Shown here: positions 48,906-64,000 of the stretch, piece by piece
Layout of the letters: the number at the start of each line of letters is the position of its first letter
How positions within the stretch are numbered: position 1 is the first letter of the stretch
Source of the DNA: a virus
IMG/VR virus record: IMGVR_UViG_3300046517_001303
Length of the DNA: 64,000 bases
Strand: one strand, 5' to 3'
The notes under the pieces: generated by a model
Told to the model about the DNA's origin: nothing
Databases searched by the model: none
What the model saw: only the letters and a program-made list of their open reading frames with translations
Program-made: the position numbers and the translations under genes

Positions 48906-48920
48906 CTTGACCGGTCAAGC
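48906..48920. repeat. junction palindrome CTTGACCGGTCAAGC (copy 1)
   Basis: 4 nt 5' of pseudogene start codon; its TTGACC is the -35 of a rightward promoter. Confidence 0.6.
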
Positions 48921-48935
48921 CGGCCCCTCTATGAT
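48907..48935 (+). promoter_or_regulatory. sigma70-like promoter TTGACC-N17-TATGAT whose -35 is one half of a junction-palindrome copy
   Basis: ttgaccggtcaagccggcccctctatgat. Confidence 0.4.
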
Positions 48936-48964
48936 TTCAATACCACCCTTACCTGGAGACCACC

Positions 48965-49141
48965 ATGCCAGCGAAGAAGAAAGTCAAAGAGAACCGGCGC
49001 ACCCTCGCGGCCCAGCTGCTCGGCCATTTTGGCGGGCTTCACGGCGGGCCAGCTCGCGCCGAAAAGTTGTCCAAAGAACGTAGAGTCGAAATTGCGAAAA
49101 TGGGCAATGCGGCATCAAAGCGTTCACGAGGCGTCGAGTAG
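48965..49141 (+). CDS. small basic protein (58 aa)
   Basis: MPAKKKVKENRRTLAAQLLGHFGG...; RBS GGAGaccaccATG; not in track (<60 aa). Confidence 0.35.
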   Translation: MPAKKKVKENRRTLAAQLLGHFGGLHGGPARAEKLSKERRVEIAKMGNAASKRSRGVE

Positions 49142-49327
49142 CCACTCTGGGCATTCGCCAGTTCGCTCTCGGTGAATCTTCGCGGCCGTATGAACGGTCA
49201 TCTCTTTCCCGTCCACGGGGTCCATGATCCTGGGGTCGCCGAACACTTTCTTGTCCGGCTCGGTGGCTTCGCGCCAACCGCGCTCGACCAGCCACAGGTA
49301 CGTTTTCCAGCCCCACCTGGTCGCCAT
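49124..49327 (-). CDS. hypothetical protein (about 67 aa, internal start MATRWGW)
   Basis: ATGA overlap with upstream gene. Confidence 0.35.
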   Translation of the reverse strand: MATRWGWKTYLWLVERGWREATEPDKKVFGDPRIMDPVDGKEMTVHTAAKIHRERTGECPEWLLDAS

Positions 49328-49662
49328 CACTTCGCCCCTCGCTTGCCGAATTCCAAACAGAACGCATCTTCGGCTTCTCGGCGGGTGTCGAAATGCCAAA
49401 AGCTAGTCCCCGGAAATATTCCGAGATGCTTGATGGCGGAAGGGCGTGAGACACAATTGGTAGAATCTTTATCATCGCATCCGCCGTGCCATGAGTACGC
49501 GACGAAGCTATCATCGGGTCGCATTTGGTGCGACCCCAGCCATCGCATCCCAGCCGCCCTCGCGTCGTCCTGCTCTTCGAGCCAGTCCGCAAACACCAAT
49601 CTCGTGTCGTGGCTGTCAATATTGGCGTCAAGCGCCTTCTGAAAAGCATCCTCGTCCACCAT
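49327..49662 (-). CDS. TIGR02996-like domain protein (111 aa)
   Basis: MVDEDAFQKALDANIDSHDTRLVFADWLEEQDDARAAGMRW ... WHFDTRREAEDAFCLEF; upstream part of track ORF is GC-frame noise. Confidence 0.55.
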   Translation of the reverse strand: MVDEDAFQKALDANIDSHDTRLVFADWLEEQDDARAAGMRWLGSHQMRPDDSFVAYSWHGGCDDKDSTNCVSRPSAIKHLGIFPGTSFWHFDTRREAEDAFCLEFGKRGAK

Positions 49663-50006
49663 CACTTCGTCCCCGTGATCTGAAACACCCGTTGCCGACT
49701 GACCCCGATCTTCTCGCTGATCTCGGCACCGGTCATTCCCTTTTCCCGCATCTCCACCAGTTTTGCCGCCCGCTTCTCGGCCTCGTCCTTCTTCGCCATT
49801 GCGGCCGGCGACTCCCACGCGCCCCTGATCCGCACGCCCCGCATCTCCAGCCACCGCTTCATCGTCTCGCGCGCGCACTCGTACTCTTCAGCCAGGCCCT
49901 TCGCGCTGACCTCGCCGTTCTCATACCGCTCCAAATCCTTCTCGGTTATTTTCATCGCATTTCGGAGCGCCGCCTCGCGCTTCCGCTTCGGTTTCCCGCG
50001 CACCAT
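49662..50006 (-). CDS. DNA-binding protein with two HTH modules (114 aa)
   Basis: GLAEEYECARETMKRWLEMRG and GMTGAEISEKIGVSRQRVFQI. Confidence 0.45.
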   Translation of the reverse strand: MVRGKPKRKREAALRNAMKITEKDLERYENGEVSAKGLAEEYECARETMKRWLEMRGVRIRGAWESPAAMAKKDEAEKRAAKLVEMREKGMTGAEISEKIGVSRQRVFQITGTK

Positions 50007-50137
50007 TCTTGCCCTCTTTCATCAGTTGCCAACACCTTCGACACGTTTGTTCAAGCGTTTTCGCACTGAATCTCTTCCTCGTCTCGCCCGTCACTCGGTC
50101 GATTGGCTCGGCGATGCCCAGGCAGGTACAGAGAACG

Positions 50138-50323
50138 TCACCCAAGTTCCTTGACGAACGCTTCGGCGGCGTCTTTCGACGCAAAGGGCGGCATACCAAT
50201 CGGCTGGTTTCGCCACACGCCGTCGGTTCCAGTGAAGGCCGCGCCGTGGCTTCCTCGCTCGCCGCTGTAGTCGGCGACGATGAACCCATTTCCATACTGC
50301 TCGATTGCATATCTGTCGTCCAT
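50138..50323 (-). CDS. hypothetical protein (about 61 aa)
   Basis: internal start MDDRYAIEQY of track ORF 50138-50374. Confidence 0.35.
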   Translation of the reverse strand: MDDRYAIEQYGNGFIVADYSGERGSHGAAFTGTDGVWRNQPIGMPPFASKDAAEAFVKELG

Positions 50324-50655
50324 TATTCCTCCCGTTCGACGCCGCAGTGGATCGGGCACTCGTGGTTCCGGCACCCTTTAAAGTCGCCGTTGATCTTCTT
50401 GGCTTCCAGGCTCGCCGCCAGCGCCGTCTCATCGCTGACCATGTTCAGCTCGTGAAAGCCCACCAAACTGTAGCCGATCAGCTGCATGAACTGCTCCCAA
50501 TCGTCCTGGGAGAAGTCCATCTGCGTCAAGTCGTTCAAGTTGATCTTGTCCCGCAGATAAAGGACAATGGCGTTGGCCTTGAACCGGACAACGCCGTCGT
50601 CGTCCACCACCATCGGTTGCATCGGGTTTCTCATTTCAATCCCCCTAAACACCAC
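50323..50655 (-). CDS. hypothetical protein (about 105 aa)
   Basis: ORF; ends CRNHECPIHC. Confidence 0.4.
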   Translation of the reverse strand: MVFRGIEMRNPMQPMVVDDDGVVRFKANAIVLYLRDKINLNDLTQMDFSQDDWEQFMQLIGYSLVGFHELNMVSDETALAASLEAKKINGDFKGCRNHECPIHCGVEREE

Positions 50656-51011
50656 TCGTAGTCCTTCAGCATGGCCACGGCGACAGGCTTCACGGTGTAG
50701 CGATAGACGTACTTTTTCTTCCCGCCGGTTCGCCCGCCGCCCATCGCCATCAGCAGGCCCTTCTCGCTCAGGCTCTCCAGCAAGGCCCTGGCCACCGGCA
50801 GCGAGTCGCTGTCGAACATGACGCCGCTCATTCGCTTCTCGTCCGCGATCACGACCTTCAGCCCGTTCCGCTCCTCCGCCGTCAGGTCGGCAATCGGCGT
50901 CGGCTTGATCCGCTTCGGCGCTTTGACATTCAAAAGCCCGTCGTGCCGTTCCGGCTGGCCGCTCTTCACGGCCGTACTCGGCCGCACGCTCCAGGCGATC
51001 TTTTCGTCCAT
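50631..51011 (-). CDS. hypothetical protein, probable winged-helix (126 aa)
   Basis: DSLPVARALLESLSEKGLL. Confidence 0.4.
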   Translation of the reverse strand: MDEKIAWSVRPSTAVKSGQPERHDGLLNVKAPKRIKPTPIADLTAEERNGLKVVIADEKRMSGVMFDSDSLPVARALLESLSEKGLLMAMGGGRTGGKKKYVYRYTVKPVAVAMLKDYEWCLGGLK

Positions 51012-51012
51012 G

Positions 51013-51363
51013 TCACTCCTTGAACTGGTCGTCGCAGAGGTCGTCAGGGACTTCGATGCCCTTCTCTTCCATGATCTTCACCAAGCCGTCCCGCCACATC
51101 TTGCGCACGTCGCTCTCACAGTGGCTCATGGCGTCCGTCCAGGTCGGCCATCGCCCGTGTATCGCATTAAACTTCATCTGATAAGGGAGCGAGTCCCTGT
51201 TGTGCGGCTGGTCCCTCTCGTGTTCCGTGTGGCACCACTCGCACGAACCTGGCGGGCCTGGCAGCATTCTCATGCCGCCGCCCTCAATCGGAGTCTCTTC
51301 GCCGGTCTCCATGTCTACAGAGACGGCGTCACCGACCTTGAACAACTTACTGTTCTTGCTCAT
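51013..51363 (-). CDS. hypothetical protein (116 aa)
   Basis: ORF. Confidence 0.45.
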   Translation of the reverse strand: MSKNSKLFKVGDAVSVDMETGEETPIEGGGMRMLPGPPGSCEWCHTEHERDQPHNRDSLPYQMKFNAIHGRWPTWTDAMSHCESDVRKMWRDGLVKIMEEKGIEVPDDLCDDQFKE

Positions 51364-51562
51364 CCTTTTTCCTCGGATCGGGGTAATACTCTTTACCCAT
51401 GATCGCCAGCGTGTAACGCCATTCGGCTTCGTCGTGGCACGCCTTGCCGCAGCAGCCGATCTCGCGGCCGTACTTCTTCATCCAGTCGAACTCGGCCTTG
51501 CACACGGGGCAGAATAGTTTGCATTGGGAAAACATAAACTGCCCCATGTGCCGTGCGGCCAT
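51347..51562 (-). CDS. zinc-finger protein (71 aa)
   Basis: CKLFCPVCKAE ... CCGKACHDE. Confidence 0.4.
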   Translation of the reverse strand: MAARHMGQFMFSQCKLFCPVCKAEFDWMKKYGREIGCCGKACHDEAEWRYTLAIMGKEYYPDPRKKDEQEQ

Positions 51563-51572
51563 CGCTGCCGCC

Positions 51573-51974
51573 TCACGCCAGAACCACCTTGCCGTTCCGC
51601 AGGACGGCCGACTTCCGGCCGATCATGTTCTTGATCTCGGAGTAGATGACGGTGTCCGGCTGCTTGCTGCTCGTCTGGAACAGGCCCCGGCTCGCGGCGA
51701 CGATCTCGCTCCGCGTCAGGCCCAGCGACCGCCCGGTCAGGATGCCGACGACGGCGGCGTGCGCGCCTTTGTACTTCTTGTGCGAGCCGTTGGGGATCAT
51801 GATCGGATGCGAGACGACCTCTCGCTTCTCCGTCGGCTTCACCTCCGGCACGCTCGCCAGAATCTCGCGCCGCACGCTGGCCGGCACGTCGTCCAGGGCG
51901 TCGCGGAACGCATTGTAGGCGTCCCTCAACTTCTCCAGCTTCATCATCTTGCTGTCGATCTGAACCAAATCCAT
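51573..51974 (-). CDS. hypothetical protein (about 133 aa)
   Basis: internal start MDLVQIDSK with RBS GAGGAGacagtgATG. Confidence 0.4.
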   Translation of the reverse strand: MDLVQIDSKMMKLEKLRDAYNAFRDALDDVPASVRREILASVPEVKPTEKREVVSHPIMIPNGSHKKYKGAHAAVVGILTGRSLGLTRSEIVAASRGLFQTSSKQPDTVIYSEIKNMIGRKSAVLRNGKVVLA

Positions 51975-52003
51975 CACTGTCTCCTCGGGTTTAGAAACAA
52001 CCG

Positions 52004-52222
52004 TCATCCTCTCGGATCGACGGAAAACTCGCCATCTTCTCCGTAAACATCCTTGTAAGCGGTCGCACCGAGCCGCATGACTTGTCCAGTCATGTCCCTC
52101 ACCAAGTTTCGCGCCTCGACCATCGCGTCCCACATGGTCTTATCGCGACCGGCGGCTTCCTGGGCCGCTTTATCCAGAGCCTCTTCGGCTTCGACCAGAC
52201 ACCGTATCACTTTCGCGTGCAT
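52004..52222 (-). CDS. hypothetical protein (72 aa)
   Basis: RBS GGAGGAactATG; own promoter TTGACA-N16-TAGAGT upstream. Confidence 0.45.
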   Translation of the reverse strand: MHAKVIRCLVEAEEALDKAAQEAAGRDKTMWDAMVEARNLVRDMTGQVMRLGATAYKDVYGEDGEFSVDPRG

Positions 52223-52283
52223 AGTTCCTCCTACTCTACGAACTCGAAGCCATTTGTCAAGGGGGCGTTCCGCTTTTCCCGTC

Positions 52284-52298
52284 CTTGAACGGTCAAGC
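52284..52298. repeat. junction palindrome CTTGAACGGTCAAGC (copy 2)
   Basis: overlaps stop (TAG) of gene 52298-52705 by 1 nt. Confidence 0.6.
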
Positions 52299-52705
52299 TA
52301 CTCGTCGGCGAAGAACTCCTCCTTGATCTTTTTGGCCGTGCAGTAGTGGTGCCAGTCCTGCACCACGCCGTCCGCTCCGATGTTGAACTCGATGTAGTCG
52401 CCGTACTCTCCTGGGATGCAGCTGGGGACGTAGTCCTGCTCGATCCTCTTGACCTCGATCTCGTCGTAGTCGAGCAGGTAGTAGCGACCCTGATCGACCA
52501 CTTTCATGTAGCACTGCGCCGCCGGATGGCCTTTAGAGACCCAGCCCTGAATCTCTCCGCTGTCGATGTTCACGGTCACGTCCCAGACGTCGCCGACCCT
52601 GAACGGGAAGTCGTTCGGGATATCCTCTTCGCCGTACCGCACCGGCACGACCACGCGGATGGCCGACACGTCAATCTCGACAGGCTTGTTCACAGTCAGT
52701 CGCAT
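52298..52705 (-). CDS. hypothetical protein (about 135 aa)
   Basis: internal start MRLTVNKPVEI with RBS GGAGGTaatATG. Confidence 0.45.
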   Translation of the reverse strand: MRLTVNKPVEIDVSAIRVVVPVRYGEEDIPNDFPFRVGDVWDVTVNIDSGEIQGWVSKGHPAAQCYMKVVDQGRYYLLDYDEIEVKRIEQDYVPSCIPGEYGDYIEFNIGADGVVQDWHHYCTAKKIKEEFFADE

Positions 52706-52706
52706 A

Positions 52707-53081
52707 TTACCTCCGCTTTGGGACGACGAAATGCCTCCCGTTGAATACTTTCTTGGTCTCGCCAGACCTATATTTTCGCGTCTTGTAGTCGTATCCGACG
52801 AACTTGTAAAACTCCCAGATGCTCGCAAACGTTCTCAGCCTCTCCCAATCGACATCCTTGAAGAGCCTCTTGCGGAATTCGATCTCGTCTTCCATATGCG
52901 CCGTGAACTGCCGAACCTCGGTCACGTTCGCGTGCGGGTTTCGCATGGACTGGAAGAAGGCGCTGAACGACATCACGGCGCGGTAGAAGCCGTCTTCCCT
53001 TACACCCGGCAGCATGAGGTAGTAGAAGTTCTGTCGGCGTTTACCAAAGAACGTCTCGATGATGAGCATCTTACTGGCCAT
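52707..53081 (-). CDS. hypothetical protein (about 124 aa)
   Basis: internal start MASKMLIIETFF; ATGA overlap. Confidence 0.4.
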   Translation of the reverse strand: MASKMLIIETFFGKRRQNFYYLMLPGVREDGFYRAVMSFSAFFQSMRNPHANVTEVRQFTAHMEDEIEFRKRLFKDVDWERLRTFASIWEFYKFVGYDYKTRKYRSGETKKVFNGRHFVVPKRR

Positions 53082-53410
53082 CACATCTCCACTACTTCCA
53101 CTCGGTCCAGTCCCGCCAACGTTTCTCTCGCGATCTCCCTGGCCTTCTTGTATCTGTTCCCGACCTTTTCCGTGAAGCCAACCAGGACTATGTCCGACAG
53201 GGCCGTTCGTGCCGCCTGCCACTCGTTCATGGCTACTACGACCATCTCCAACCCAGCCTTGTCTGGCCCCGTCAAAAACGGCCGGCCCTCCTTGTCCTTC
53301 ACGACCCAGACGGCCCACCCAAACCCTTCCTGGTTTTTATCCTCCAGCTCAATCGTGAGCGGCAGCACGGGAATCACTTGTCCACCTCGATCTTGACCAT
53401 GTGAATCCAC
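53081..53410 (-). CDS. hypothetical protein (99-109 aa)
   Basis: ORF; alternative GTGA-overlap start at ~53378. Confidence 0.4.
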   Translation of the reverse strand: MDSHGQDRGGQVIPVLPLTIELEDKNQEGFGWAVWVVKDKEGRPFLTGPDKAGLEMVVVAMNEWQAARTALSDIVLVGFTEKVGNRYKKAREIARETLAGLDRVEVVEM

Positions 53411-53757
53411 TTCTTGCCGGACAGCTTTTTCTCCATTGTCTCTAAGTCGCTCGTCGGACAGTCGAGCTTCACGAACTCGCCCTTCTCTCCGTACTGAGTC
53501 TCCATGACCGGGAACAGCAAGTCGGTCGCCCGAATGCCTTCGTCGCGGCTCTTGTCGCTGGCGTCCTTAGCGGCGTACTGATACCAACTCTTCCGGTCCT
53601 TGCCGTCGAACGGGTCCGCGCTCTCGGCGCTGTAGTACCGGAACCGGTACTTTATCGTCCACTTCCCATCATCCACCACCAGCCGCGCCATCCAGTCGCC
53701 GGTCTTGCCGTCGCCGACGAACCAGATGCCGTAGATGTAGGTCTCGTTCTTGTCCAC
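53374..53757 (-). CDS. hypothetical protein (about 127 aa)
   Basis: track start 53781 is a TTG inside the junction palindrome; likelier GTG ~53757 after RBS GGGAGGTGG. Confidence 0.4.
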   Translation of the reverse strand: MDKNETYIYGIWFVGDGKTGDWMARLVVDDGKWTIKYRFRYYSAESADPFDGKDRKSWYQYAAKDASDKSRDEGIRATDLLFPVMETQYGEKGEFVKLDCPTSDLETMEKKLSGKKWIHMVKIEVDK

Positions 53758-53768
53758 CCGCCACCTCC

Positions 53769-53783
53769 CTTGATCGGTCAAGC
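53769..53783. repeat. junction palindrome CTTGATCGGTCAAGC (copy 3)
   Basis: between stop of 53783-54067 and RBS of next gene. Confidence 0.6.
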
Positions 53784-54067
53784 TACCACCGCACCGGCGG
53801 TGGGAACTTTCGGTTCTCTTCCTTCACCTTCTCACCGACGCGCTGGGCCTCTTGGTCTCTGGCGTAGCCTTCCGGCGTAAAGACGTATTCCATGCTCTCG
53901 GCGTAGTGCGTGGTCACGTCCGGGGCTTGTTTGCTCCACTTGATCCAGACAGTGTTGTAACGTTTGTTGACCACTTCCCCGTCGTCGTCGTGCTGGCTCT
54001 CGCCGGGCTTGCGAAAGATCACTTTGTCGCCCTTTTTGAGCCGCTTCGCTTGGCTTTTCAACATCAC
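53783..54067 (-). CDS. hypothetical protein (94 aa)
   Basis: ORF. Confidence 0.45.
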   Translation of the reverse strand: MMLKSQAKRLKKGDKVIFRKPGESQHDDDGEVVNKRYNTVWIKWSKQAPDVTTHYAESMEYVFTPEGYARDQEAQRVGEKVKEENRKFPPPVRW

Positions 54068-54231
54068 TTCCTCCCCCCGATCAGCTTCACCTTCGGAACC
54101 TCAGCCAATCCTGCGCTCGCCCGCAGCCGTTCGTTGATGGCCTTCAGGTTCGCCGCCAGTTCGGCCGTCTGCTTGCGCACCTCTTCGGCCTCTTTGTTCT
54201 CGTCGCCGATCAGCCAGCTCAGAAACTTCAT
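54062..54231 (-). CDS. small coiled-coil protein (55 aa)
   Basis: MKFLSWLIGDENKEAEEVRKQTAELAANLKAINERL...; RBS AGGAGcgtcATG; ATGA overlap; not in track. Confidence 0.3.
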
Positions 54232-54518
54232 GACGCTCCTTGGGTTAGGGTCAGGACGGCCACGCCTTCCACGATCTTCATCCGTCCGCCGAACTCTTCC
54301 CGATTCACATGCGCGACCTCGTCGCGATTAGCGGTGAACACGGGGCCGGAGTAGTATTGCTTACTCCCGTCCACGCAGGCGACGTTGCCGTTCTCGTCCA
54401 CCAGGATGAACACCTTGTACTGCGCGAACGTCGGCGCGGGCTTTGGCGTGAACGCCTGCACGGGCTTTTTTTGCAGGAACAACCACTTTATCTTGCGCTC
54501 CCTTGATCGGTCAAGCAT
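54228..54518 (-). CDS. hypothetical protein (about 96 aa)
   Basis: start ATG immediately 5' of junction palindrome (TAATG overlap with upstream stop); upstream part of track ORF is GC-frame noise. Confidence 0.4.
   Translation of the reverse strand: MLDRSRERKIKWLFLQKKPVQAFTPKPAPTFAQYKVFILVDENGNVACVDGSKQYYSGPVFTANRDEVAHVNREEFGGRMKIVEGVAVLTLTQGAS
54502..54516. repeat. junction palindrome CTTGATCGGTCAAGC (copy 4)
   Basis: 1 nt from stop of 54518-54985; here it encodes codons 2-5 of next gene. Confidence 0.6.
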
Positions 54519-54985: not shown

Positions 54986-55012
54986 TTCAGAATCTCCTGT
55001 TTCAGATAATGC

Positions 55013-55027
55013 CTTGATCGGTCAAGC
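55013..55027. repeat. junction palindrome CTTGATCGGTCAAGC (copy 5)
   Basis: stop codon TGA of 55022-55312 lies inside it. Confidence 0.6.
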
Positions 55028-55548: not shown

Positions 55549-55563
55549 CGCCGTGGCCCTCCC

Positions 55564-55578
55564 CTTGATCGGTCAAGC
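55564..55578. repeat. junction palindrome CTTGATCGGTCAAGC (copy 6)
   Basis: stop TGA of 55573-55935 inside it. Confidence 0.6.
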
Positions 55579-55935: not shown

Positions 55936-55947
55936 AGATCACCTCCG

Positions 55948-55962
55948 CTTGATCGGTCAAGC
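55948..55962. repeat. junction palindrome CTTGATCGGTCAAGC (copy 7)
   Basis: between stop of vWA gene and RBS GGAGGTG of next gene. Confidence 0.6.
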
Positions 55963-56602: not shown

Positions 56603-56617
56603 CTTGATCGGTCAAGC
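56603..56617. repeat. junction palindrome CTTGATCGGTCAAGC (copy 8)
   Basis: abuts stop of 38-aa ORF; 20 nt 5' of vWA start. Confidence 0.6.
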
Positions 56618-56987: not shown

Positions 56988-56995
56988 CGTTCCCT

Positions 56996-57010
56996 CTTGT
57001 TCGGTCAAGC
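56996..57010. repeat. junction palindrome variant CTTGTTCGGTCAAGC (copy 9)
   Basis: 8 nt 5' of ATG ~56987. Confidence 0.55.
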
Positions 57011-57097
57011 GTGACGGGCGGCTACTCAAGCGAGGGTCCATTACGTCCCGCCCGAACCCCTGCAAATGGATTGCAGCTTTATCCCGTCACGCTTGGC

Positions 57098-57349: not shown

Positions 57350-57352
57350 GCT

Positions 57353-58317: not shown

Positions 58318-58416
58318 TGATTTTCTCCGGTTCAGGTCCACTACAAACCCATTCCGTCCCCATCACTCTACGACTTTTTTCCCCGTTGTCAAGGGTGAGA
58401 GTAAAAATTTCTCCCC

Positions 58417-58431
58417 CTTGAGCGGTCAAGC
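58417..58431. repeat. junction palindrome CTTGAGCGGTCAAGC (copy 10)
   Basis: stop TGA of 58426-58965 inside it; preceded by long hairpin 58388-58420. Confidence 0.6.
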
Positions 58432-58965
58432 GTCACGGTAATAGAACATGCTGCTGCCGATGTCGGCCGTGCTATAATCGTCCTTGACCTTGTCGGCCCA
58501 CTTCTCCCAATCAATGCAATCCTCCAGCGGATTGCCCTTCACGTTCGCCAGGTAGCCCAGCTCTTCGGCCTCATTCTTGGCGAACTCCTCGAAATAGCTT
58601 TCGTTCACGAACGCCACGCCGTCGTGCCACCGGCGCAGGTCCATATCCTCTTTCAGCGCCTCTAGCGTCTCCAGCAGTTCTTTTTTGTCGGAGTCGAACT
58701 CTTCCAGCTCGTCCGGCGCTTCGGGCGCTTCCGGCTCTTCCTCGTCCGGGTCGGCTCGCTCTTTCCATTCCTGGTGAGCTTTACGGAATTGCGCCATGTC
58801 GGCGTCGTAGTCGCCCTGCGCGTCGTCGTACTCCGATTGCGCGTTATCGGCGTCGGTCTTCTCGTCGTCCAGCCGCTCAATGATCTTTTGCAAGTCGCGG
58901 CTGTCTAGCACGTTTTCGTATTCGATGTCGCCGATGCAGTCGGCGGTGTCGCGGATGCTCTTCAT
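58426..58965 (-). CDS. highly acidic protein (179 aa)
   Basis: D/E-rich PDEEEPEAPEAPDELEEFD. Confidence 0.45.
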   Translation of the reverse strand: MKSIRDTADCIGDIEYENVLDSRDLQKIIERLDDEKTDADNAQSEYDDAQGDYDADMAQFRKAHQEWKERADPDEEEPEAPEAPDELEEFDSDKKELLETLEALKEDMDLRRWHDGVAFVNESYFEEFAKNEAEELGYLANVKGNPLEDCIDWEKWADKVKDDYSTADIGSSMFYYRDA

Positions 58966-58983
58966 CGCTCACGCTCCTTGGGG

Positions 58984-59124
58984 TCACTTACACACCAGGC
59001 GGGCCGCGCGGCTCGCCTTTCTTCGCCTGTTCCACGGGATACTCGCAATGTGCGCATCCCACCATCGCCGTTGCTCGGCACGTTGCCGCTTTTCGGTGTT
59101 CGACATCTTCTTAGGCCGGCTCAT
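58984..59124 (-). CDS. small basic protein (46 aa)
   Basis: MSRPKKMSNTEKRQRAEQRRWWDAHIAS...; RBS AGGGGAAGacATG 3' of palindrome; not in track. Confidence 0.3.
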   Translation of the reverse strand: MSRPKKMSNTEKRQRAEQRRWWDAHIASIPWNRRRKASRAARLVCK

Positions 59125-59134
59125 GTCTTCCCCT

Positions 59135-59149
59135 CTTGACCGGTCAAGC
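59135..59149. repeat. junction palindrome CTTGACCGGTCAAGC (copy 11)
   Basis: overlaps stop TAG of 59149-59772. Confidence 0.6.
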
Positions 59150-59772
59150 TACATATCCTGCAACGCTTCGCGCAACTCCGTCATCTTGTCGTCGCCCAGC
59201 GCGGCGCGGAGCTTTAGCCCCACCTCCACGCACGCCTTGTAAATCCGCTCGGCTTCGCGCGAATCCACCTCATACCCGAAGTCCCCCGCCCACTCCTCGA
59301 ACCCGCCCGCGTCGATAGCTTCGGCGTCGAGTAGAAGACTGTGAAGGACGTCGGCCAGCTCGGGCGGGGGAAGCGGCTTCACCCATTGCCACTCGCCGGT
59401 CAGTTCCGGATTTTTGCTCACCTTCGCCGTCTTGCCTTTTTCGGCAACGTGATGGAAATACTTATCCCGGTCCAGCGTCATACGCCCGTGAGTGTAGCCA
59501 GGCGCATGGCCGATGCCTTGCATGTAGTCGGTGGTGAGAATGTCGCGATGAGTTAGCGACGTCCACCGGGCCAGCTCGTCCGCGGTCGGCTTCCTGCGCA
59601 GCGTCACGCGCCAATTCAGGCTCAGATTCTTGTCGCCCGCGTTCCGGCTCTGGCTCTGCGGCACGAATACGGCCGTGTAGTCCAGTTCGGGCGCAATCTC
59701 GCGAATCTTGGCGAGCCGATCATACTCGGCTTCCGGTCGCGCCTTCTCTTGCAGCATTTCGTCAGCGGTCAT
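59149..59772 (-). CDS. hypothetical protein (about 207 aa)
   Basis: internal start MTADEMLQEKARPE; track ORF start lies beyond the palindrome. Confidence 0.45.
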   Translation of the reverse strand: MTADEMLQEKARPEAEYDRLAKIREIAPELDYTAVFVPQSQSRNAGDKNLSLNWRVTLRRKPTADELARWTSLTHRDILTTDYMQGIGHAPGYTHGRMTLDRDKYFHHVAEKGKTAKVSKNPELTGEWQWVKPLPPPELADVLHSLLLDAEAIDAGGFEEWAGDFGYEVDSREAERIYKACVEVGLKLRAALGDDKMTELREALQDM

Positions 59773-59782
59773 GGCATACCCT

Positions 59783-59797
59783 CTTGATCGGTCAAGC
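59783..59797. repeat. junction palindrome CTTGATCGGTCAAGC (copy 12)
   Basis: 10 nt 5' of ATG ~59772; 10 nt from tRNA-Tyr 3' end. Confidence 0.6.
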
Positions 59798-59807
59798 ATT
59801 ACCACAG

Positions 59808-59897
59808 TGGGCGCGGCAGGAATTGAACCTGCGATGTTTACCATTTAGGATCAGATTTACAGTCTGACGCTACACAACCAGCAGTAGCCTCACGCCC
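59808..59897 (-). tRNA. tRNA-Tyr (anticodon GUA), type II with long variable arm
   Basis: minus-strand GGGCGTG acceptor / CGCGCCC-A, D-arm GCTA...TAGC, anticodon arm TCAGA-CTGTAAA-TCTGA, T-arm GCAGG-TTCAATT-CCTGC. Confidence 0.6.
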
Positions 59898-60069
59898 ATT
59901 GCCCCGTATCGCCGGGGCCACGCGACAACCTTACGGGGTGATTAGCCCCAGAACATAAGGCACCTCCTGAGAGTATTCGGTTGATCCTCACTCCCCACTT
60001 GCGGACATTGATATACGCTCAGACTTTACGCTTTAGGCGGCGCTCGGGTCCAGTGCATGGTCGGCCCTC

Positions 60070-60438
60070 CTATTCGCTGCGGTCGCTCAGTAAATGAGAA
60101 AATCTCTTCCGCACCTCCTCTGTCTCGAATTGATAAACCCTCACCCGTCGCGCGATATCCCGCACCCGGCAGCAGTCGCGCCATATCTTCGCTTGCCAGT
60201 CGCTTTCCCACTTGCGACCAGGGACGTCGGCTCGTCCGGCTTTGCGGTTTATGGCCATATCCACTAACCACATCAACCGCGCCTGCGCTTCTCCCTTCGT
60301 CATCGCCACGCCGTACCGATCCTCCGGATTTTTGCACTTCTCAAATTCGTTTTGCCTCACGAATTTGCGGTAGTATTTCAGGAGCCGCACCGTCGCGGCT
60401 ATCTGGGCGCGTGTCACCGTTTGGCCAGCGAAGAGCAT
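60070..60438 (-). CDS. hypothetical protein (122 aa)
   Basis: RBS GGGGGAGatATG. Confidence 0.45.
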   Translation of the reverse strand: MLFAGQTVTRAQIAATVRLLKYYRKFVRQNEFEKCKNPEDRYGVAMTKGEAQARLMWLVDMAINRKAGRADVPGRKWESDWQAKIWRDCCRVRDIARRVRVYQFETEEVRKRFSHLLSDRSE

Positions 60439-60446
60439 ATCTCCCC

Positions 60447-60839
60447 CTAGTGCGTTTTAATTCCTGCGGCCTTGAATTCTTCAGACTTGATCGGCGCAAC
60501 CGTGCGCTTTTCAATTGCGAAATCGTAATCACAGAGGTAGACAGTCAGTCGGCCCGCTTTCCATTCCTCTGTATCGCGTTCGCTCAACGTATTTCCGTTG
60601 ACGTCTTCAAATTGATTGAACCCGATACGGTTCGTTTCGCCGTCTTCGTCCGGCAGGAATAGGTCGTCCATCGCCAGCGCGAATTTGTCGCCGATCTTTT
60701 TCACCAGTAGCGCCAGAGTCGGCGCGGTCACGTTGCACGGCTCGTGAACGATTGTCTGCGGCTTGCCCTGACAGCCTTTGTTATATTCCGATACTTCGGC
60801 ACGCTTTTCAATAAACGTGCAAGCGTAAAAGGTTCCCAT
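60447..60839 (-). CDS. hypothetical protein (about 130 aa)
   Basis: internal start MGTFYACTF with RBS GAGGAAcaagtcATG. Confidence 0.4.
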   Translation of the reverse strand: MGTFYACTFIEKRAEVSEYNKGCQGKPQTIVHEPCNVTAPTLALLVKKIGDKFALAMDDLFLPDEDGETNRIGFNQFEDVNGNTLSERDTEEWKAGRLTVYLCDYDFAIEKRTVAPIKSEEFKAAGIKTH

Positions 60840-60870
60840 GACTTGTTCCTCTGGCCGCACTATACGGCCG

Positions 60871-60885
60871 GTTGATCGGTCAAGC
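60871..60885. repeat. junction palindrome variant GTTGATCGGTCAAGC (copy 13)
   Basis: 3 nt from stop of 60888-61353. Confidence 0.55.
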
Positions 60886-60887
60886 TA

Positions 60888-61353
60888 TCACGTTGACGTT
60901 GACACTTCAGCGTCGGGCCATTCGGCGCAGGCGACAGCGTAGCTCGCCACGAACGCCACTAATCCGTCATAGTCTCCCCATCCATTCGCAGGGTTCAGCG
61001 CCTTAAAGCGCTTTGGGTCGCACAGTAGTACGACCAACCCGGCCCGCAGTAATCCTGCCAAGTCTCGCGCCTTAGTAACGCCGATCTCTTCGGGATGCCA
61101 GCACGCCTCATATAGTCCCGCGGCTTTCGCCATTGGCACTAGATTGTGCGTGATGTTGCGCGTGTAGACTTCATCGGCGCAGACTGTCGCCGTCACCGGT
61201 TCGCGGCCAGTGTTCATTGCGTCCCACTCGGCGCGGCTAATCTCAACAGTCGCGCCGTCGCGCCGTATGAAAATAGCTTGGCGAGGTTCGCCCGTTATTT
61301 CGTTGGGCAGTATCGCAATGCGCGGCATGGTCAGCATTACGTCGAGACTCATT
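60888..61353 (-). CDS. hypothetical protein (about 154 aa)
   Basis: track start is a TTG inside the palindrome; likelier MSLDVMLTMP after RBS GAGGTG. Confidence 0.4.
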
Positions 61354-61364
61354 TTGCACCTCAC

Positions 61365-61379
61365 TTGACCGGTCAAGCT
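61365..61379. repeat. junction palindrome CTTGACCGGTCAAGC (copy 14)
   Basis: 11 nt 5' of ATG ~61353. Confidence 0.6.
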
Positions 61380-61403
61380 ATCCTATCACTTTTCGACCCT
61401 TTG

Positions 61404-61988
61404 TCAAGACACAACGTCAGATTTTTCTGGCATCACTTCCGCGTCATCGCTCACGCGATAGACGGGGTATGGGGCGCGGCCCTCATCGAACCAAGAGTGA
61501 TCGAAGCAGTAGGCTTTCGCCTGCCCCTCCTCACTCCCATCTCGCAGGTAGACGGCTCCAGGGGCGCACGGCGAACAGAACGGCCCGCGCGTGTAGTAGG
61601 GCGATTTCAACACGAAGATATCATGGTCGGCCCCGCTCTGGCTCGCCATATATTCGCCATCGTCCAACGTCCACGCGATAGCCTCTTCGCCGAAAGCGGA
61701 CTCGCTCCCGAAGACGTATTCGCATTGCTCGCAAGCATAGTCTGCACACTCGTGCGCATTATGCTTCCATTCTTCCATTGGCGGGATGTTTTGCAGCGCA
61801 TTTTCGTCATCATTGACGTCGCAACAGTCTACGGCCGAATTCCCGCACTTCGGGCAATACGGCGGGCCGTAGTCCGCCTCTGAGCTGTCGGCCCAGCTCT
61901 GGCAGACGTCGTTTGCGGGAATCACGCCGTAGCGGATGCCCGTAGCCTTGTCGATATTCGTTGTCCCCATGCCGTAGTCGATTCCCAT
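61404..61988 (-). CDS. Cys-rich hypothetical protein (194 aa)
   Basis: CPKCGNSAVDCCD ... CADYACEQCEY ... CSPCAPG. Confidence 0.45.
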   Translation of the reverse strand: MGIDYGMGTTNIDKATGIRYGVIPANDVCQSWADSSEADYGPPYCPKCGNSAVDCCDVNDDENALQNIPPMEEWKHNAHECADYACEQCEYVFGSESAFGEEAIAWTLDDGEYMASQSGADHDIFVLKSPYYTRGPFCSPCAPGAVYLRDGSEEGQAKAYCFDHSWFDEGRAPYPVYRVSDDAEVMPEKSDVVS

Positions 61989-62007
61989 AGCGTCCCCAGG
62001 TTAGAGC

Positions 62008-62022
62008 CTTGAACGGTCAAGC
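62008..62022. repeat. junction palindrome CTTGAACGGTCAAGC (copy 15)
   Basis: 19 nt 5' of ATG 61988. Confidence 0.6.
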
Positions 62023-62023
62023 A

Positions 62024-62149
62024 TTACGACCACAGACAATCCCAAGTCCCAAGTAAACCGGCGCACCCGATCCGTATCCACAGCGAGTCATTCTTGGGAA
62101 CGATCTTCACCACTCGCCACAGCTCGCCGTCGAAATAGACAACGGCCAT
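62024..62149 (-). CDS. micro-protein (41 aa)
   Basis: MAVVYFDGELWRVVKIVPKNDSLWIRIGCAGLLGTWDCLWS; stop TAA abuts palindrome; weak RBS. Confidence 0.2.
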   Translation of the reverse strand: MAVVYFDGELWRVVKIVPKNDSLWIRIGCAGLLGTWDCLWS

Positions 62150-62167
62150 TTCGTGATTCTTCACTGT

Positions 62168-62368
62168 TTACCACTCCATATAGCCGCAACGGTCCGTCAG
62201 CCAACGCCATAGCCTGCGCGCCTTCGCTCGCTCCATCGTCCGCCGATACTCCAGCTGGTATCGCGCCCAGCGCTCCACGATAACGCTCTCCCCATCCGGC
62301 TGGAAAGTGTAGTAGCGCAGTTTATCGTGCAAGTCTAAGCGGTAACGCTTCACTACTTTAAGCGCCAT
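62168..62368 (-). CDS. hypothetical basic protein (66 aa)
   Basis: internal start MALKVVKRYRLD; ATGA overlap. Confidence 0.4.
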   Translation of the reverse strand: MALKVVKRYRLDLHDKLRYYTFQPDGESVIVERWARYQLEYRRTMERAKARRLWRWLTDRCGYMEW

Positions 62369-62667
62369 CACCCATCCCCCAAAAGCTTCTTGACGTAGTA
62401 GCAATGGTCCAGCATTGTTTCGACCGCTTGACTCAACGCGGCCCGCGCCGCCGTTGTTTCGGGAACGGTCACAATCTGAACGACGGCGGGCGCAGCTGGA
62501 GCTGGCGGGACGTACATAGGATGCCCCGGACCGATTGGCCCTACCCAACGCCCATTGCCTTGTATCATTCCGTTTTTGTTCTTGCGTATCTGCACGTTGT
62601 TGCAATACTGCAACACCTCACGCGCTTCCGCTTCAGTGTGCGCCAATACGCTCACATATCCGGGCAT
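62368..62667 (-). CDS. hypothetical protein (about 99 aa)
   Basis: track start is TTG of palindrome; likelier MPGYVSV after RBS AGAGGGAtacgtcATG. Confidence 0.4.
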   Translation of the reverse strand: MPGYVSVLAHTEAEAREVLQYCNNVQIRKNKNGMIQGNGRWVGPIGPGHPMYVPPAPAAPAVVQIVTVPETTAARAALSQAVETMLDHCYYVKKLLGDG

Positions 62668-62678
62668 GACGTATCCCT

Positions 62679-62693
62679 CTTGAACGGTCAAGC
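62679..62693. repeat. junction palindrome CTTGAACGGTCAAGC (copy 16)
   Basis: stop TGA of 62688-62858 inside it. Confidence 0.6.
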
Positions 62694-62858
62694 ATTACCG
62701 ATTACCACTTCCCAAGCGGCTTCCGTTTCGCGGATGATAGCCGATTTCAGGATATCGTGCATCTCTTGGGTATGGACTCCGCGGCGGAGCTGGTCGGCGA
62801 GCAACAATAACCTGCGCTCGCATGCGCCTTTGGCGGCTTTCTGGTATTCGTCGTCCAT
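62688..62858 (-). CDS. hypothetical protein (about 56 aa)
   Basis: internal start MDDEYQKAAKG of track ORF 62688-62915. Confidence 0.35.
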   Translation of the reverse strand: MDDEYQKAAKGACERRLLLLADQLRRGVHTQEMHDILKSAIIRETEAAWEVVIGNA

Positions 62859-62860
62859 TG

Positions 62861-63190
62861 TTACTCCAGTGTGATACCATCGCGCTCCAGCTGTTCCACG
62901 ACATCTCCCCAACAACCGGTCGAAAACCGCCCCGTCCTACTGTCGAATAAGACGGTGTACTCGTAAGTATCACCCATATTCAGATAGGTAATACCGTCTT
63001 CGCCGTTGTTCCAACAAAAACCCTCCACGCCGTAGCCGATCTTAAAGCGCTCACCAGCGCGCCTTATCGCCTCACTGGCCGCGTGGGACGGGTGACCTGC
63101 GAACCGATACCATTGCGGGTCCGACTCGTCGCGTAGCTTGCGGTACTGGTCACTCGCGAACCGACGCGCTTTTACGATTAACTCCGCCAT
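62861..63190 (-). CDS. hypothetical protein (109 aa)
   Basis: RBS AGAGGAtacgtcATG. Confidence 0.45.
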   Translation of the reverse strand: MAELIVKARRFASDQYRKLRDESDPQWYRFAGHPSHAASEAIRRAGERFKIGYGVEGFCWNNGEDGITYLNMGDTYEYTVLFDSRTGRFSTGCWGDVVEQLERDGITLE

Positions 63191-63202
63191 GACGTATCCT
63201 CT

Positions 63203-63400
63203 CTAGGCCAGCTGGAAATAGAAGCGCCGCTCACCCTTCACCCGGAACGCGCTCACCTTGCACCCGTCAATCTTCGCCACGCCCACATAGCGTGCGTCCC
63301 TCACCTCTTTATCGCCCAAGACTATCGTCTCAGGGTCGCGCGGATATCGGCGCGAGCTGGTGTAAGCGTACCCATTGCGCAGACGTTTTCCGTTTTCCAC
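63203..63400 (-). CDS. hypothetical protein (65 aa)
   Basis: ORF starting just 3' of a palindrome copy. Confidence 0.4.
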   Translation of the reverse strand: MENGKRLRNGYAYTSSRRYPRDPETIVLGDKEVRDARYVGVAKIDGCKVSAFRVKGERRFYFQLA

Positions 63401-63408
63401 GGTTCACC

Positions 63409-63423
63409 CCTTGAGCGGTCAAG
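63409..63423. repeat. junction palindrome CTTGAGCGGTCAAGC (copy 17)
   Basis: directly 5' of start of 63203-63400. Confidence 0.6.
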
Positions 63424-63425
63424 CG

Positions 63426-63677
63426 CTACGAAACAATGATTTTCCGGCCCTTCGCCACGAACCAGACGGTGCCGTTGTTACTGTAGATAGTCACATACAA
63501 ACGGTACAAACGGCCGTTGTAGTGAATCTTCAACCCGGAATTGAGCCGCGCGCCGTATCCTGTCGCTGTCTGTTGCAAGCCGCGTTGCATCCACGCGGGC
63601 CGGTCTTCGACCAGCTCCGCGCGGTCCGCATAGATATACTGCTCGCGAACCACGTCGGCCGTTGTAAACTGTTTCAT
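63426..63677 (-). CDS. hypothetical protein (about 83 aa)
   Basis: internal start MKQFTTADVV with strong RBS AGAGGTGAtgagATG. Confidence 0.4.
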   Translation of the reverse strand: MKQFTTADVVREQYIYADRAELVEDRPAWMQRGLQQTATGYGARLNSGLKIHYNGRLYRLYVTIYSNNGTVWFVAKGRKIIVS

Positions 63678-63731
63678 CTCATCACCTCTTGAATTGTTCT
63701 TCCCTATCATCCTATTGATTTATCGGCCGTT

Positions 63732-63766
63732 GACAAGGGGGAATGCAAGAATTTTTCCCCCTTGTC
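63732..63766. repeat. 12-bp perfect-stem hairpin GACAAGGGGGAA-(11 nt)-TTCCCCCTTGTC, then palindrome-like CTTGTCAACG
   Basis: one of three CAAGGGGG...CCCCCTTG hairpins (also ~52248-52283, ~58388-58420). Confidence 0.5.
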
Positions 63767-63776
63767 TTGTCAACGT

Positions 63777-64000
63777 TCACTGTTTATATTCGTGGCGCTC
63801 GTCGCGCAGGGCCTCTTGCATCTTGTTCCATTCATCCTTTAATAGAAGATTTTCTAAGTGTTTACCGGCTCGCATCCCCAGCTCGTTTGTCAGGATGCGC
63901 AGCGCGGCCCAGATGTTATCGCAGCTCGTTATCTGGTCGCCGATCTCAGTGAGCTTTTCCAGCGTATCGGAAGTCATTGCGCGTCGCATTGCGTACACTC
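63777..64000 (-). CDS. hypothetical protein (5' end may lie beyond window edge)
   Basis: ORF 63777-63998 begins 2 nt from the window end. Confidence 0.3.
   Translation of the reverse strand, partial: VYAMRRAMTSDTLEKLTEIGDQITSCDNIWAALRILTNELGMRAGKHLENLLLKDEWNKMQEALRDERHEYKQ

Follow-up and report, generated by a model that had tools for sequence, protein, structure and literature searches.

Which function can be assigned to a short palindrome that recurs throughout a block of small viral genes? In the window, the whole 64,000-nucleotide stretch of phage DNA analysed here, an initial annotation had listed 17 near-identical copies of such a motif. Rescanning retrieved the same 17 between 48906 and 63424 (GCTTGACCGNTCAAG in the mRNA sense): 15 match the plus-strand form CTTGANCGGTCAAGC exactly and two carry one mismatch, whereas 0.04 copies are expected by chance from shuffled sequence. 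All have the same orientation, and what is CTTGANCGGTCAAGC on the plus strand reads GCTTGACCGNTCAAG along the minus-strand genes. The annotated confinement to the minus-strand block was reproduced as well, as no convincing copy was found in the window outside 48.9-63.4 kb, even with three mismatches allowed. Beyond the end of the window, an identical contig (L190) carries two additional copies at 589-603 and 902-916, which correspond to 64316-64330 and 64003-64017 in window coordinates. The described conservation was recovered, with an invariant right half, CGGTCAAGC common to the copies, single-base variants at 56996 and 60871, and a variable position 6, which is position 10 in the mRNA sense (A in nine of the 19 copies, G in five, T in three, C in two). 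The core is a 14-bp dyad in which position 7 is an invariant C but its mate, position 10, is free. Among the decayed copies proposed previously, the one at about 51018, GACCaGTTCAAG with a single inserted base, is plausible, while that at about 57075 was not convincing. The motif had been called undescribed; a literature search found its sequence in no paper, but it occurs outside this phage as well (see below).

The motif was reported to adjoin stop codons and to lie near starts at nearly every gene junction. In 13 of the 17 copies the upstream stop indeed lies 0-2 nt away, overlaps the first base (G1) or is a TGA inside the motif, and in 14 a start codon follows after 4-31 nt; exceptions are found at 61364, 59783, 56996, 58417, 52284 and 48906. 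A stop overlaps G1 in copies 2 (52284-52298, TAG), 3 (53769-53783, followed by GGAGG and a GTG start 11 nt downstream), 8 (56603-56617) and 11 (59135-59149, a perfect palindrome with TAG and an ATG 10 nt downstream). The internal TGA is the upstream stop in copies 5 (55013-55027) and 6 (55564-55578), and a TGA also lies within copies 10 (58417-58431) and 16 (62679-62693). One nucleotide separates the stop from copies 7 (55948-55962, start 12 nt downstream) and 17 (63410-63424, GTG 9 nt downstream). Copies 4 (54502-54516) and 15 (62008-62022) read TAAT-GCTTGACC; a TAATG stop/start overlap is possible at copy 4, which makes it ambiguous where the next gene starts. Variant copy 9 (GCTTGACCGAACAAG, 56996-57010) has its stop 87 nt upstream and an ATG 8 nt downstream, the other variant is copy 13 (GCTTGACCGATCAAC, 60871-60885), and copy 12 (59783-59797) follows the 3' end of a tRNA-Tyr gene (59807-59897) by 9 nt, with an ATG 10 nt downstream. 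"Nearly every junction" was an overstatement, since only 17 of about 41 junctions in the block carry the motif. Those without it are overlapping or tightly coupled stop/start pairs, and a copy occupies all but one of the 17 spacers that measure 20 nt or more in the 52.2-63.7 kb interval. The small genes of this block have no database relatives.

Most copies lie away from promoters, between the stop codon and the Shine-Dalgarno sequence, which is excluded from the motif. Promoters of the form TTGACA-N16-TAGAGT begin 23 nt downstream of copy 2 (52260-52233) and 24 nt downstream of copy 10 (58392-58365), in each case between the motif and the next gene on the minus strand. At copy 14 (61364-61378, a perfect palindrome) the promoter TTGACA-N16-TAGGAT (61407-61380) lies between the upstream stop and the motif, which adjoins the -10 and covers the predicted transcription start, the classical position of a repressor. 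The in-window promoter of the block (TTGTCA-N16-TAGGAT, 63709-63736, minus strand) has a different palindrome and no motif copy. Copy 1 (GCTTGACCGGTCAAG, 48906-48920) is a perfect 14-bp palindrome in minus orientation whose plus-strand TTGACC forms the -35 of a sigma-70-type promoter (TTGACC-N17-TATGAT, 48907-48935), so that the motif overlaps the -35 and the spacer. This rightward promoter had been annotated correctly.

The same palindrome was found on promoters of an IS1-like element family that is pan-bacterial, very widespread and uncharacterised. Its members consist of terminal repeats GGTAGTGGGTCAGTTTGAAA, an "orfA" of about 75 aa belonging to no Pfam family, and a DDE transposase of about 280 aa that is named "IS1 family transposase" by PGAP and has an N-terminal HTH_23 domain. 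The promoters of both genes carry the consensus CTTGA-S-CG-S-TCAAG, often extended to ATGCTTGACCGNTCAAGCAT. A 19-mer scan across metagenomes yielded 61 loci, in about 30 of which the motif stands at a fixed place ahead of homologous transposase genes whose products share only 45-60% identity; 20 of the motif-containing loci encode the small protein. Paired GGTAGTGGGTCAGTTTGAAA repeats, 2.2-3.3 kb apart in metagenomic loci and about 4.2 kb apart in an annotated Hoeflea plasmid copy, identify these as genuine IS elements. To obtain a sample free of ascertainment, 80 genome loci from many phyla were selected by the orfA protein alone. The motif (up to three mismatches) was present within -200 to +30 of the orfA start in 46 of the 80, with about 1.5 expected, and (up to two mismatches) within 80 nt of 22 of 57 transposase starts, drawn from 56 of these loci, with about 0.03 expected; about 40% of the protein-selected copies have no recognisable motif. 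It lies at two discrete distances upstream of the transposase ATG, 12-13 nt and 22-23 nt, which differ by about one helical turn, and 18 of the 22 motifs are in the sense orientation. In some of the promoters the motif supplies the -35 hexamer and in others it makes up the 17-bp spacer that separates TTGACA from TATAAT; in either case it lies in untranscribed DNA, so that in the IS the element acts at the DNA level. Other loci (L179, L186, L029) have tandem copies 20 or 24 bp apart, a spacing typical of protein operators.

The use of TTGACC as -35 in the IS family (type A layout) and at phage copy 1 raises the question of whether all phage copies serve as promoter elements that start internal transcripts within the block. 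Besides copy 1, only one copy has even a weak, properly spaced -10 (54514, TAAAGT), and with start codons 4-31 nt past the motif, transcription starting about 23 nt downstream would begin inside genes; this reading is highly improbable. We also considered that the copies might mainly be junction repeats arising from or serving recombination of gene cassettes, with little or no regulatory role. T4-type phages carry PeSLs, an early promoter plus stem-loop between early genes, for which such modular shuffling has been proposed; they too are short repeats found where small early genes adjoin in a plastic part of the genome, but most copies here lack a promoter and their hairpin is marginal. The position at boundaries of genes without relatives, the uniform orientation that duplication would give, and the longer flanks shared by some copies (GGTAAT-motif-AGAGGGnAT..CATG at 59783 and 62679, including stop, Shine-Dalgarno and start) would agree with such an origin. 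However, only position 10 has drifted, to all four bases, and the other 14 of the 15 positions are invariant, which indicates purifying selection on the motif itself; moreover, copies 1 and 14 sit on promoters, and selection also maintains this sequence in IS promoters from different phyla. A mere junction repeat is therefore distinctly unlikely.

The promoter at copy 1 drives a small gene (48965-49141, plus strand) encoding a 58-aa protein, MPAKKKVKENRRTLAAQLLGHFGGLHGGPARAEKLSKERRVEIAKMGNAASKRSRGVE. It is a homologue of the IS1-like orfA, comprising the C-terminal domain only (hmmsearch E=3.8e-14), and keeps every invariant residue of the family; the gene was called independently on JGI and Logan contigs. 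A terminator-like hairpin follows (49184-49199), giving a moron-like stand-alone layout. Neither a transposase nor IS ends are present in the phage, and no integrase was found in it. Searches for a recognised DNA-binding domain in the 58-aa protein returned no Pfam match and no PDB sequence or fold match, and AlphaFold models were of modest confidence (pLDDT 65 and 76, pTM about 0.3).

Because the palindrome is the same as on the IS promoters and the phage carries the IS small protein, the repeats are most likely binding sites for the orfA-like protein, which would control the whole block. On balance, the phage has probably co-opted a repressor and its operator from an IS and multiplied the operator into an array dispersed over the block. 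A shortened orfA would have been retained with the operator over its own -35, and the operator would have spread to at least 18 further sites in the leftward block of presumably early genes transcribed by host RNA polymerase. We infer from these associations that the 58-aa protein binds the motif and thereby represses transcription, with the copies between cistrons serving as roadblocks. The protein, expressed from a near-consensus promoter of its own, would first repress that promoter, then occupy the site over the transcription start of the 61407 promoter and, on intercistronic sites, hinder elongating RNA polymerase. Occlusion of the promoters at two sites, probably combined with roadblocks at the others, much as for mycobacteriophage stoperators, would shut down the 12-15 kb block as a whole, either at an early-to-middle switch or in a quiescent state.

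IS1 itself offers a comparable case: its InsA protein binds the IS1 ends and acts as a repressor of the transposase promoter that these ends overlap. As in the family described here, InsA is a small protein whose gene precedes the transposase gene of an IS1-family element, and it is associated with a cis site on the promoter. The site here, however, is an internal palindrome rather than a terminal repeat. The orfA-like protein shows no sequence relationship to InsA, with no zinc finger or HTH detected, and the phage module lacks a transposase and has its site amplified about 19-fold.

The binder might nevertheless be another protein, either the phage two-HTH protein (114 aa, 49662-50006, minus strand) or a host-resident IS OrfA or transposase; in the latter case the phage would be under the control of a host element or would itself titrate the host protein. 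The N-terminal HTH of the transposases, lacking in the phage, could be the true IS binder. The 49662-50006 protein has HTH_7 and HTH_23 motifs, and a monomer with two such modules, like the stoperator repressors (PMC9283540), would account for the orientation and asymmetry of the site, whereas a symmetric dimer leaves the strict single orientation and the invariant C7 with a free position 10 unexplained. Its similarity to the transposase N-terminus is not significant (E=1.2), though, and orfA is the only gene family common to phage and IS. Comparative support was absent for all binders named initially, the proteins at 10052-10321 and 49662-50006 and the sigma factor; judged from these comparisons, the 58-aa protein, which the initial annotation had passed over, would be the better candidate, and a different binder is unlikely.

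Whether the motif works as operator or as RNA hairpin had been left undecided. The comparative evidence favours the operator because the identical palindrome lies in untranscribed IS1-like promoter DNA and because it covers the -35 of a phage gene from the IS small-protein family. Transcribed, the motif would form a small intercistronic hairpin (CUUGA-CCGN-UCAAG) that might be a processing site, stabilise the 3' end of the upstream cistron or tRNA, couple or uncouple translation of neighbouring genes, or be the target of an RNA-binding protein. All copies are sense-oriented in polycistronic units, right after stops and just ahead of Shine-Dalgarno sequences, where an RNA-level role is as natural as that of an operator, and one follows a tRNA. 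The invariant C7 and free N10 are the asymmetry expected of a loop read on one strand, and strong stem-loops occur between cistrons at similar junctions of L127, a distantly related contig. However, the hairpin has only 5 bp (about -3.4 kcal/mol), reaches a predicted probability above 50% in its local context at only 6 of the 17 copies, has the same stem sequence in every copy and hence no covariation, and matches no Rfam family. In addition, the IS motifs and copy 1 lie upstream of the transcription start and thus not in RNA, and transcription at copy 14 is predicted to start within the motif itself. An RNA element is thus fairly unlikely.

Among phage systems, the phiC31 repressor acts at CIRs, palindromic operators of about 17 bp in many copies across the early region, mostly promoter-associated. 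Many copies of a palindrome, here a putative operator, over an early region are common to both phages; sequence and repressor family differ. The initial annotation had pointed to the start-associated sequences (SAS/ESAS) of cluster K mycobacteriophages. These occur only in the non-structural genome half, in one orientation near gene starts and sometimes including the upstream stop, but they are non-palindromic (GGGATAGGAGCCC), contain the Shine-Dalgarno core, lie 3-7 bp from the start codon and have been assigned a proposed translational role (PMC3203893). The resemblance is superficial, as the phage motif is a dyad without Shine-Dalgarno sequence, is at least as tightly tied to stops and has DNA-level homologues at promoters. 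By analogy, the stoperators of cluster A phages (L5 gp71 and relatives) would be closer functionally. More than 20 of these short sites are dispersed through the genome, at promoters or between closely spaced genes, where they often touch a stop or start codon; they are strictly oriented with transcription, and the phage-encoded repressor binds the asymmetric 13-bp site as a monomer with an HTH and a second domain (PMC9283540). The copies described here are likewise short, dispersed over promoters and gene spacers, and oriented near stops and starts, and their candidate repressor is phage-encoded too. They differ in their 14-bp dyad core, in a candidate protein from an unrelated, uncharacterised family, in a host that is not an actinobacterium, and in an operator-protein pair common to an insertion sequence. 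Finally, the mis-starts that the ORF caller was said to place on the TTG inside the motif are real.

Allowing at most one mismatch, 17 sites matching CTTGANCGGTCAAGC were found between 48906 and 63424, all on one strand, against 0.04 expected from dinucleotide-preserving shuffles; the repeat array reported in the initial annotation is thus borne out as highly non-random. Raising the limit to three mismatches gave no convincing further site in the whole 64 kb, and the remaining 49 kb of the window contained no copy. GC skew and ORFs place the genes of the block on the minus strand, and in mRNA sense the motif reads GCTTGACCGNTCAAG. Position 10 in this sense carries all four bases (the phage motif is written as GCTTGACCGGTCAAG, with further variants having A, T or C there), and at the other 14 of the 15 positions the only deviations are two single substitutions (copies at 56996 and 60871). 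An identical contig from another sample (L190) extends the window end by 918 nt and adds two copies (589-603 and 902-916), so that the phage carries at least 19 copies, 19 of 19 in a single orientation.

The gene calls used to place the motif were our own and agreed with Prodigal calls on the JGI and Logan fragments. At 13 of the 17 copies the upstream stop codon comes within 0-2 nt of the motif, shares its first G or is a TGA inside it, and in 14 of 17 the next start codon follows 4-31 nt 3' of it, usually with GGAG or GAGG immediately after the motif. Copies with a distant stop (61364, 59783 and 56996) have a start 8-11 nt downstream, and those with a distant start (58417 and 52284) have a stop touching the motif and a promoter in the gap; the motif therefore fills intergenic spacers and tracks neither stops nor starts specifically. 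Of the 17 spacers of 20 nt or more between 52.2 and 63.7 kb, 16 contain it, and at the other ~24 junctions of the block the stop/start pairs overlap. A tRNA-Tyr gene (59807-59897) has its 3' end 9 nt ahead of copy 12 (59783).

Promoters of the sigma-70 type (TTGACA/TTGTCA-N16-TAGGAT/TAGAGT) were located in the block at 63736, 61407, 58392 and 52260, so transcription is presumably carried out by the host RNA polymerase. At the 61407 promoter copy 14 (61364), a perfect palindrome, starts one base past the -10 and covers the predicted start site, which, judged from the sequence, is the position expected of a repressor. At two internal promoters (58392-58431 and 52260-52298, minus strand) the motif precedes the -35 by 23-24 nt, which puts its centre at about -65 relative to the predicted start; such a location would suit an activator, or insulation against read-through, better than occlusion. 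The block's first promoter in the window (63700-63775, minus strand; TTGTCA-N16-TAGGAT) sits in a different palindrome, TTGACAAG-acaa-GGGGGAA...TTCCCCC-TTGTCAA, which may be the site of another regulator or a terminator of the upstream unit.

When the bare motif (14 specified bases) was compared with IMG/VR, the search was flooded by single chance matches, and longer patterns were therefore used. The 19-mer TRAYGCTTGACCGNTCAAG returned merely 61 loci from the whole metagenome collection, half of them within one IS family, and no IMG/VR contig scanned held a multi-copy array comparable to that of the phage. These counts bear on a possible likeness to REP/BIME-type extragenic palindromes of a host, a class that numbers hundreds of copies along the chromosome and is not phage-specific. 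In ~30 of the 61 loci the motif stands at a fixed position ahead of an ORF beginning MNKL. These ORFs are mutually homologous (45-60% identity) and encode distant IS1-family DDE transposases with an N-terminal HTH, labeled 'IS1 family transposase' by PGAP in cultured examples. The elements are flanked by paired terminal repeats GGTAGTGGGTCAGTTTGAAA, 2.2-3.3 kb apart in metagenomic loci (L128, 127-2944; L137, 591-2798; L132, L138, L166, L182 and L183) and ~4.2 kb apart in an annotated Hoeflea plasmid copy (L279, NZ_CP011481.1), and are real insertion sequences. That the motif itself is an IS terminal repeat was rejected, since it is an internal palindrome on the transposase promoter. This apparently undescribed sub-family is found in many bacterial phyla and one archaeal bin and combines a small orfA with variable passenger genes (ClpP-like protease, XRE regulator).

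Two promoter layouts were recognized in the elements. In one, TTGACC of the motif serves as -35, 17 nt separate it from a TAnnnT-like hexamer, and the ATG comes 6-7 nt after that; in the other, the motif forms the 17-bp spacer between TTGACA and TATAAT, with ATG 6 nt further on. Both look leaderless as predicted from sequence. All-against-all ORF comparison of the loci revealed a second conserved gene 5' of the transposase, orfA, encoding a ~75-aa protein with the consensus MPKRSSKPxDxNQLAKSIVDxAT...EKNPAAVALGRLGGLKGGKARAEKLSxExRSEIAKKAAxARW. A copy of the motif either lies 25-36 nt ahead of the orfA start or supplies the first codons of the gene (ATG CCT GAC CGC TCA AG -> MPDRS), and in some loci copies occur in tandem, 20 or 24 bp apart. 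The family comprises at least 8000 clusters, all 'hypothetical', for which no Pfam family was found, and literature searches returned no paper containing the motif or the small-protein signature. Operator variants exist among the IS copies (e.g. TTAAGCGCTCATG and GAGCGGTTA). All 19 phage copies fit the IS1-like operator sequence CTTGA-S-CG-S-TCAAG, which is often extended by ATGC/GCAT; five of the 17 window copies have the upstream ATGC (TAATGC in four, TGATGC in one), like the IS consensus ATAATGCTTGACCGcTCAAGcAtaa.

The association of motif and genes was also examined in 80 genome loci retrieved by the protein profile only, without use of the motif, from Chloroflexota, Actinomycetota, Planctomycetota, Acidobacteriota, Proteobacteria, Nitrospirota and one Methanoperedens bin. 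A motif with up to three mismatches was present within -200 to +30 of the orfA start in 46 of the 80 loci (~1.5 expected), and one with up to two mismatches within 80 nt of the transposase start at 22 of 57 starts from 56 of the 80 loci (~0.03 expected). The distance from motif to transposase ATG takes two discrete values, 12-13 nt and 22-23 nt, approximately one helical turn apart, and 18 of these 22 motifs are in sense orientation. In the protein-selected copies positions 7 and 10 hold C or G, with all combinations represented, indicating that the family consensus is a dyad in which position ±2 is poorly read. About 40% of the protein-selected IS copies, the Hoeflea plasmid copy among them, have no recognizable motif.

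A search of all six-frame ORFs of the window with the small-protein profile gave one match, a 58-aa protein encoded at 48965-49141 (plus strand; E=3.8e-14), whose gene is also called on independent contigs. It is devoid of the family's N-terminal half and keeps every invariant residue. The gene lies on the strand opposite to the block, is preceded by a near-consensus promoter of its own (TTGACC-N17-TATGAT, 48907-48935) and is followed by a terminator-like hairpin (49184-49199). Motif copy 1 (48906) forms the -35 of this promoter, so that the siting on an orfA-family promoter is that of the IS. Unlike a complete IS1-like element, the phage locus has neither a DDE transposase, for which tblastn and profile searches were negative in the phage, nor the IS terminal repeat (GGTAGTG...), which was absent from the window and L190. 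Thus, the phage carries the regulatory module, not the IS element, and by sequence and orfA link the motif belongs with the putative internal operator of the IS1-like elements. AlphaFold predicted three or four helices for the small protein (pLDDT 65-76, pTM ~0.3), with no recognizable DNA-binding fold and no structural neighbor. No deposited phage genome encoding it was found. Two IMG/VR contigs of 81 kb and 50 kb (L193 and L194, 9900-10222) encode a short orfA-like protein resembling that of the phage, with no transposase within 10 kb and two motif-like sites at the orfA-like promoter but no multi-copy array, and may represent an independent domestication.

A dyad of 15-20 bp over the -35, the promoter spacer or +1 is the signature of a repressor operator. 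Because the motif precedes the start site both in the IS and at phage copy 1, it acts as DNA there, and its role as a DNA-level, probably protein-bound site is well supported. The small protein, as the sole gene family common to phage and IS, is the best candidate binder. At the copies other than 1 and 14, which lie within transcription units, the most economical assumption is that bound protein would hinder elongation in the manner of L5-type repressors on their stoperators. We infer which protein binds, in which sense it regulates and that it obstructs the polymerase; the whole chain, in which the motif is an operator bound by the small protein that represses promoters and forms roadblocks, appears slightly likelier to hold than to fail.

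The initial annotation had left open whether the palindrome is an operator or an RNA hairpin. Homologous sites in promoter DNA favor the operator, and a hairpin in the transcript, although suggested by the strict sense orientation of the copies and their location between stop codon and Shine-Dalgarno sequence, is unlikely: its stem has 5 bp (-3.4 kcal/mol) and is predicted in context for 6 of 17 copies only, covariation is absent, Rfam 15 at the gathering threshold yielded two tRNAs as the only matches in the window, and an RNA structure is inapplicable to the untranscribed homologous sites. An intrinsic (Rho-independent) terminator was rejected, as the 5-bp stem has two G-C pairs, no T run follows and terminator-like matches never coincide with the motif. 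The operator is decidedly unlikely to be bound instead by host IS proteins or by the two-HTH protein (49662-50006, minus strand) proposed as binder at the outset, for which comparative support is lacking; a resemblance of the latter to the transposase HTH was not significant.

Three observations sit uneasily with the operator reading: the small protein shows no recognizable DNA-binding fold, about 40% of the protein-selected IS copies are without the motif, and a symmetric dimer predicts neither the single orientation of all 19 copies nor an invariant C7 opposite a free N10. This asymmetry possibly reflects duplication of junction cassettes (common descent, some copies sharing flanks), selection for a 3' AAG running into the Shine-Dalgarno sequence (AAG-GAGG) or a truly asymmetric complex. 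That the copies are mainly junction repeats of cassette shuffling is very unlikely, as this leaves the position-by-position purifying selection unexplained, and there is next to no likelihood that the intercistronic copies are internal promoters, since no -10 occurs at proper spacing.

Dispersed operator arrays are an already known kind of system in phages. Functionally closest are the cluster A stoperators and the conserved inverted repeats of phiC31; the phage motif is a member of neither, as site and protein family differ. Cluster A stoperators lie in short intergenic spaces in one orientation (PMC9283540), and the phage motif likewise recurs many times in short gaps between genes and at promoters, always pointing the same way relative to transcription. 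At stoperators the bound repressor halts elongation in an orientation-dependent manner, a step that is conjectural for the phage motif. However, stoperators are asymmetric, 13 bp long and recognized by monomeric immunity repressors of the L5 gp71 family, which have two domains, whereas the phage motif is a 14-bp dyad of other sequence; no gp71-like protein was identified in the phage, and the candidate binder, the 58-aa protein, is of another family. The start-associated sequences of cluster K, to which the motif had initially been likened, have the non-palindromic consensus GGGATAGGAGCCC with the Shine-Dalgarno core inside, 3-7 bp from the start codon (PMC3203893). The phage motif is not one of them, having another sequence, a dyad core, the Shine-Dalgarno sequence outside and 4-98 nt to the start.

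New here are the derivation of operator and protein from an IS and the ~19-fold amplification in the phage early block. In its widest form, to which we give somewhat less than an even chance, a tailed phage would have domesticated a repressor together with its operator from a pan-bacterial IS1-like family and multiplied the operator into an array of stoperator-like roadblocks that silences the whole early block, the first outside actinobacteriophages. The array would be governed by a DNA-binding protein of ~60 aa with a new fold, and the relatives of this protein, at least 8000 clusters, would regulate transposition in many phyla. Should the small protein bind the palindrome, a very large 'hypothetical' ~75-aa family, from Chloroflexota to Proteobacteria, gains a function as regulator of IS1-like elements and a defined 15-bp site. 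Binding would also show clearly that a phage has recruited an IS control module for its own temporal program, dispersed and oriented 'stop-operator' arrays would no longer be a mycobacteriophage peculiarity, and the 58-aa protein with its 15-bp site would be a compact, portable tool for repression or roadblocks. If it does not bind, the motif is still an unusually clean sequence-specific intercistronic element.

The genome is that of a novel tailed phage, a JGI metagenome contig of ~65.4 kb, with genes for an Erf-type recombinase, an exonuclease V/Dda-like helicase, primase-like and tape-measure-like proteins, a phage metallopeptidase, a Ro60/TROVE protein and a weak ECF-type sigma factor. No close relatives were detected in the INPHARED phage collection by megablast or in IMG/VR by protein-seeded scans. 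The block genes have almost no database relatives (best non-self homologue 50% identical), and other contigs with window genes are 100% identical fragments, making comparison of the motif within the lineage impossible. Three loci with distant homologues (L123, L126 and L127) contained no motif copy. One of them (L127, 1-20936; GCA_040384425.1, contig JAWVGW010000170.1) encodes homologues of three block genes (~37-45% identity), with no orfA homologue in the locus, and has an intergenic repeat of its own, stop-AGCAGAGAAG ... CTTCTCTGCT-aac-AGGAG-start, each arm occurring 10 times over 21 kb; where arms are paired, they fold with -22 to -28 kcal/mol, and several arms stand alone.

A Cro/CI-type HTH gene (10052-10321, minus strand) faces the promoter TTGACAAACGCCAAAAAGTCAATAGTAT (10335, plus strand), which includes TTGAC-N12-GTCAA. 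This dyad, in which a recurrence of the half-site had been seen, is present as described but is an operator-like dyad of its own, with no relation to the 15-bp motif. The ORFs scanned included no integrase. The Ro60/TROVE protein (31925-33541, plus strand; TROVE E=1.3e-50, Ro60 vWA E=4e-57) is preceded by 950 gene-free nt (30974-31924), in which 31572-31641 matches YrlA (Y RNA-like) below threshold (23 bits, E=0.029) and 31769-31827 gives a tRNA-like match, and gene and stretch are probably a phage Ro60/Y-RNA pair. A 223-aa protein with weak ECF sigma-factor similarity (47819-48490, plus strand; TIGR02937 E=9e-5), whose gene ends exactly at the end of the leftward block (convergent junction 48490/48491), is a candidate late or middle sigma factor.
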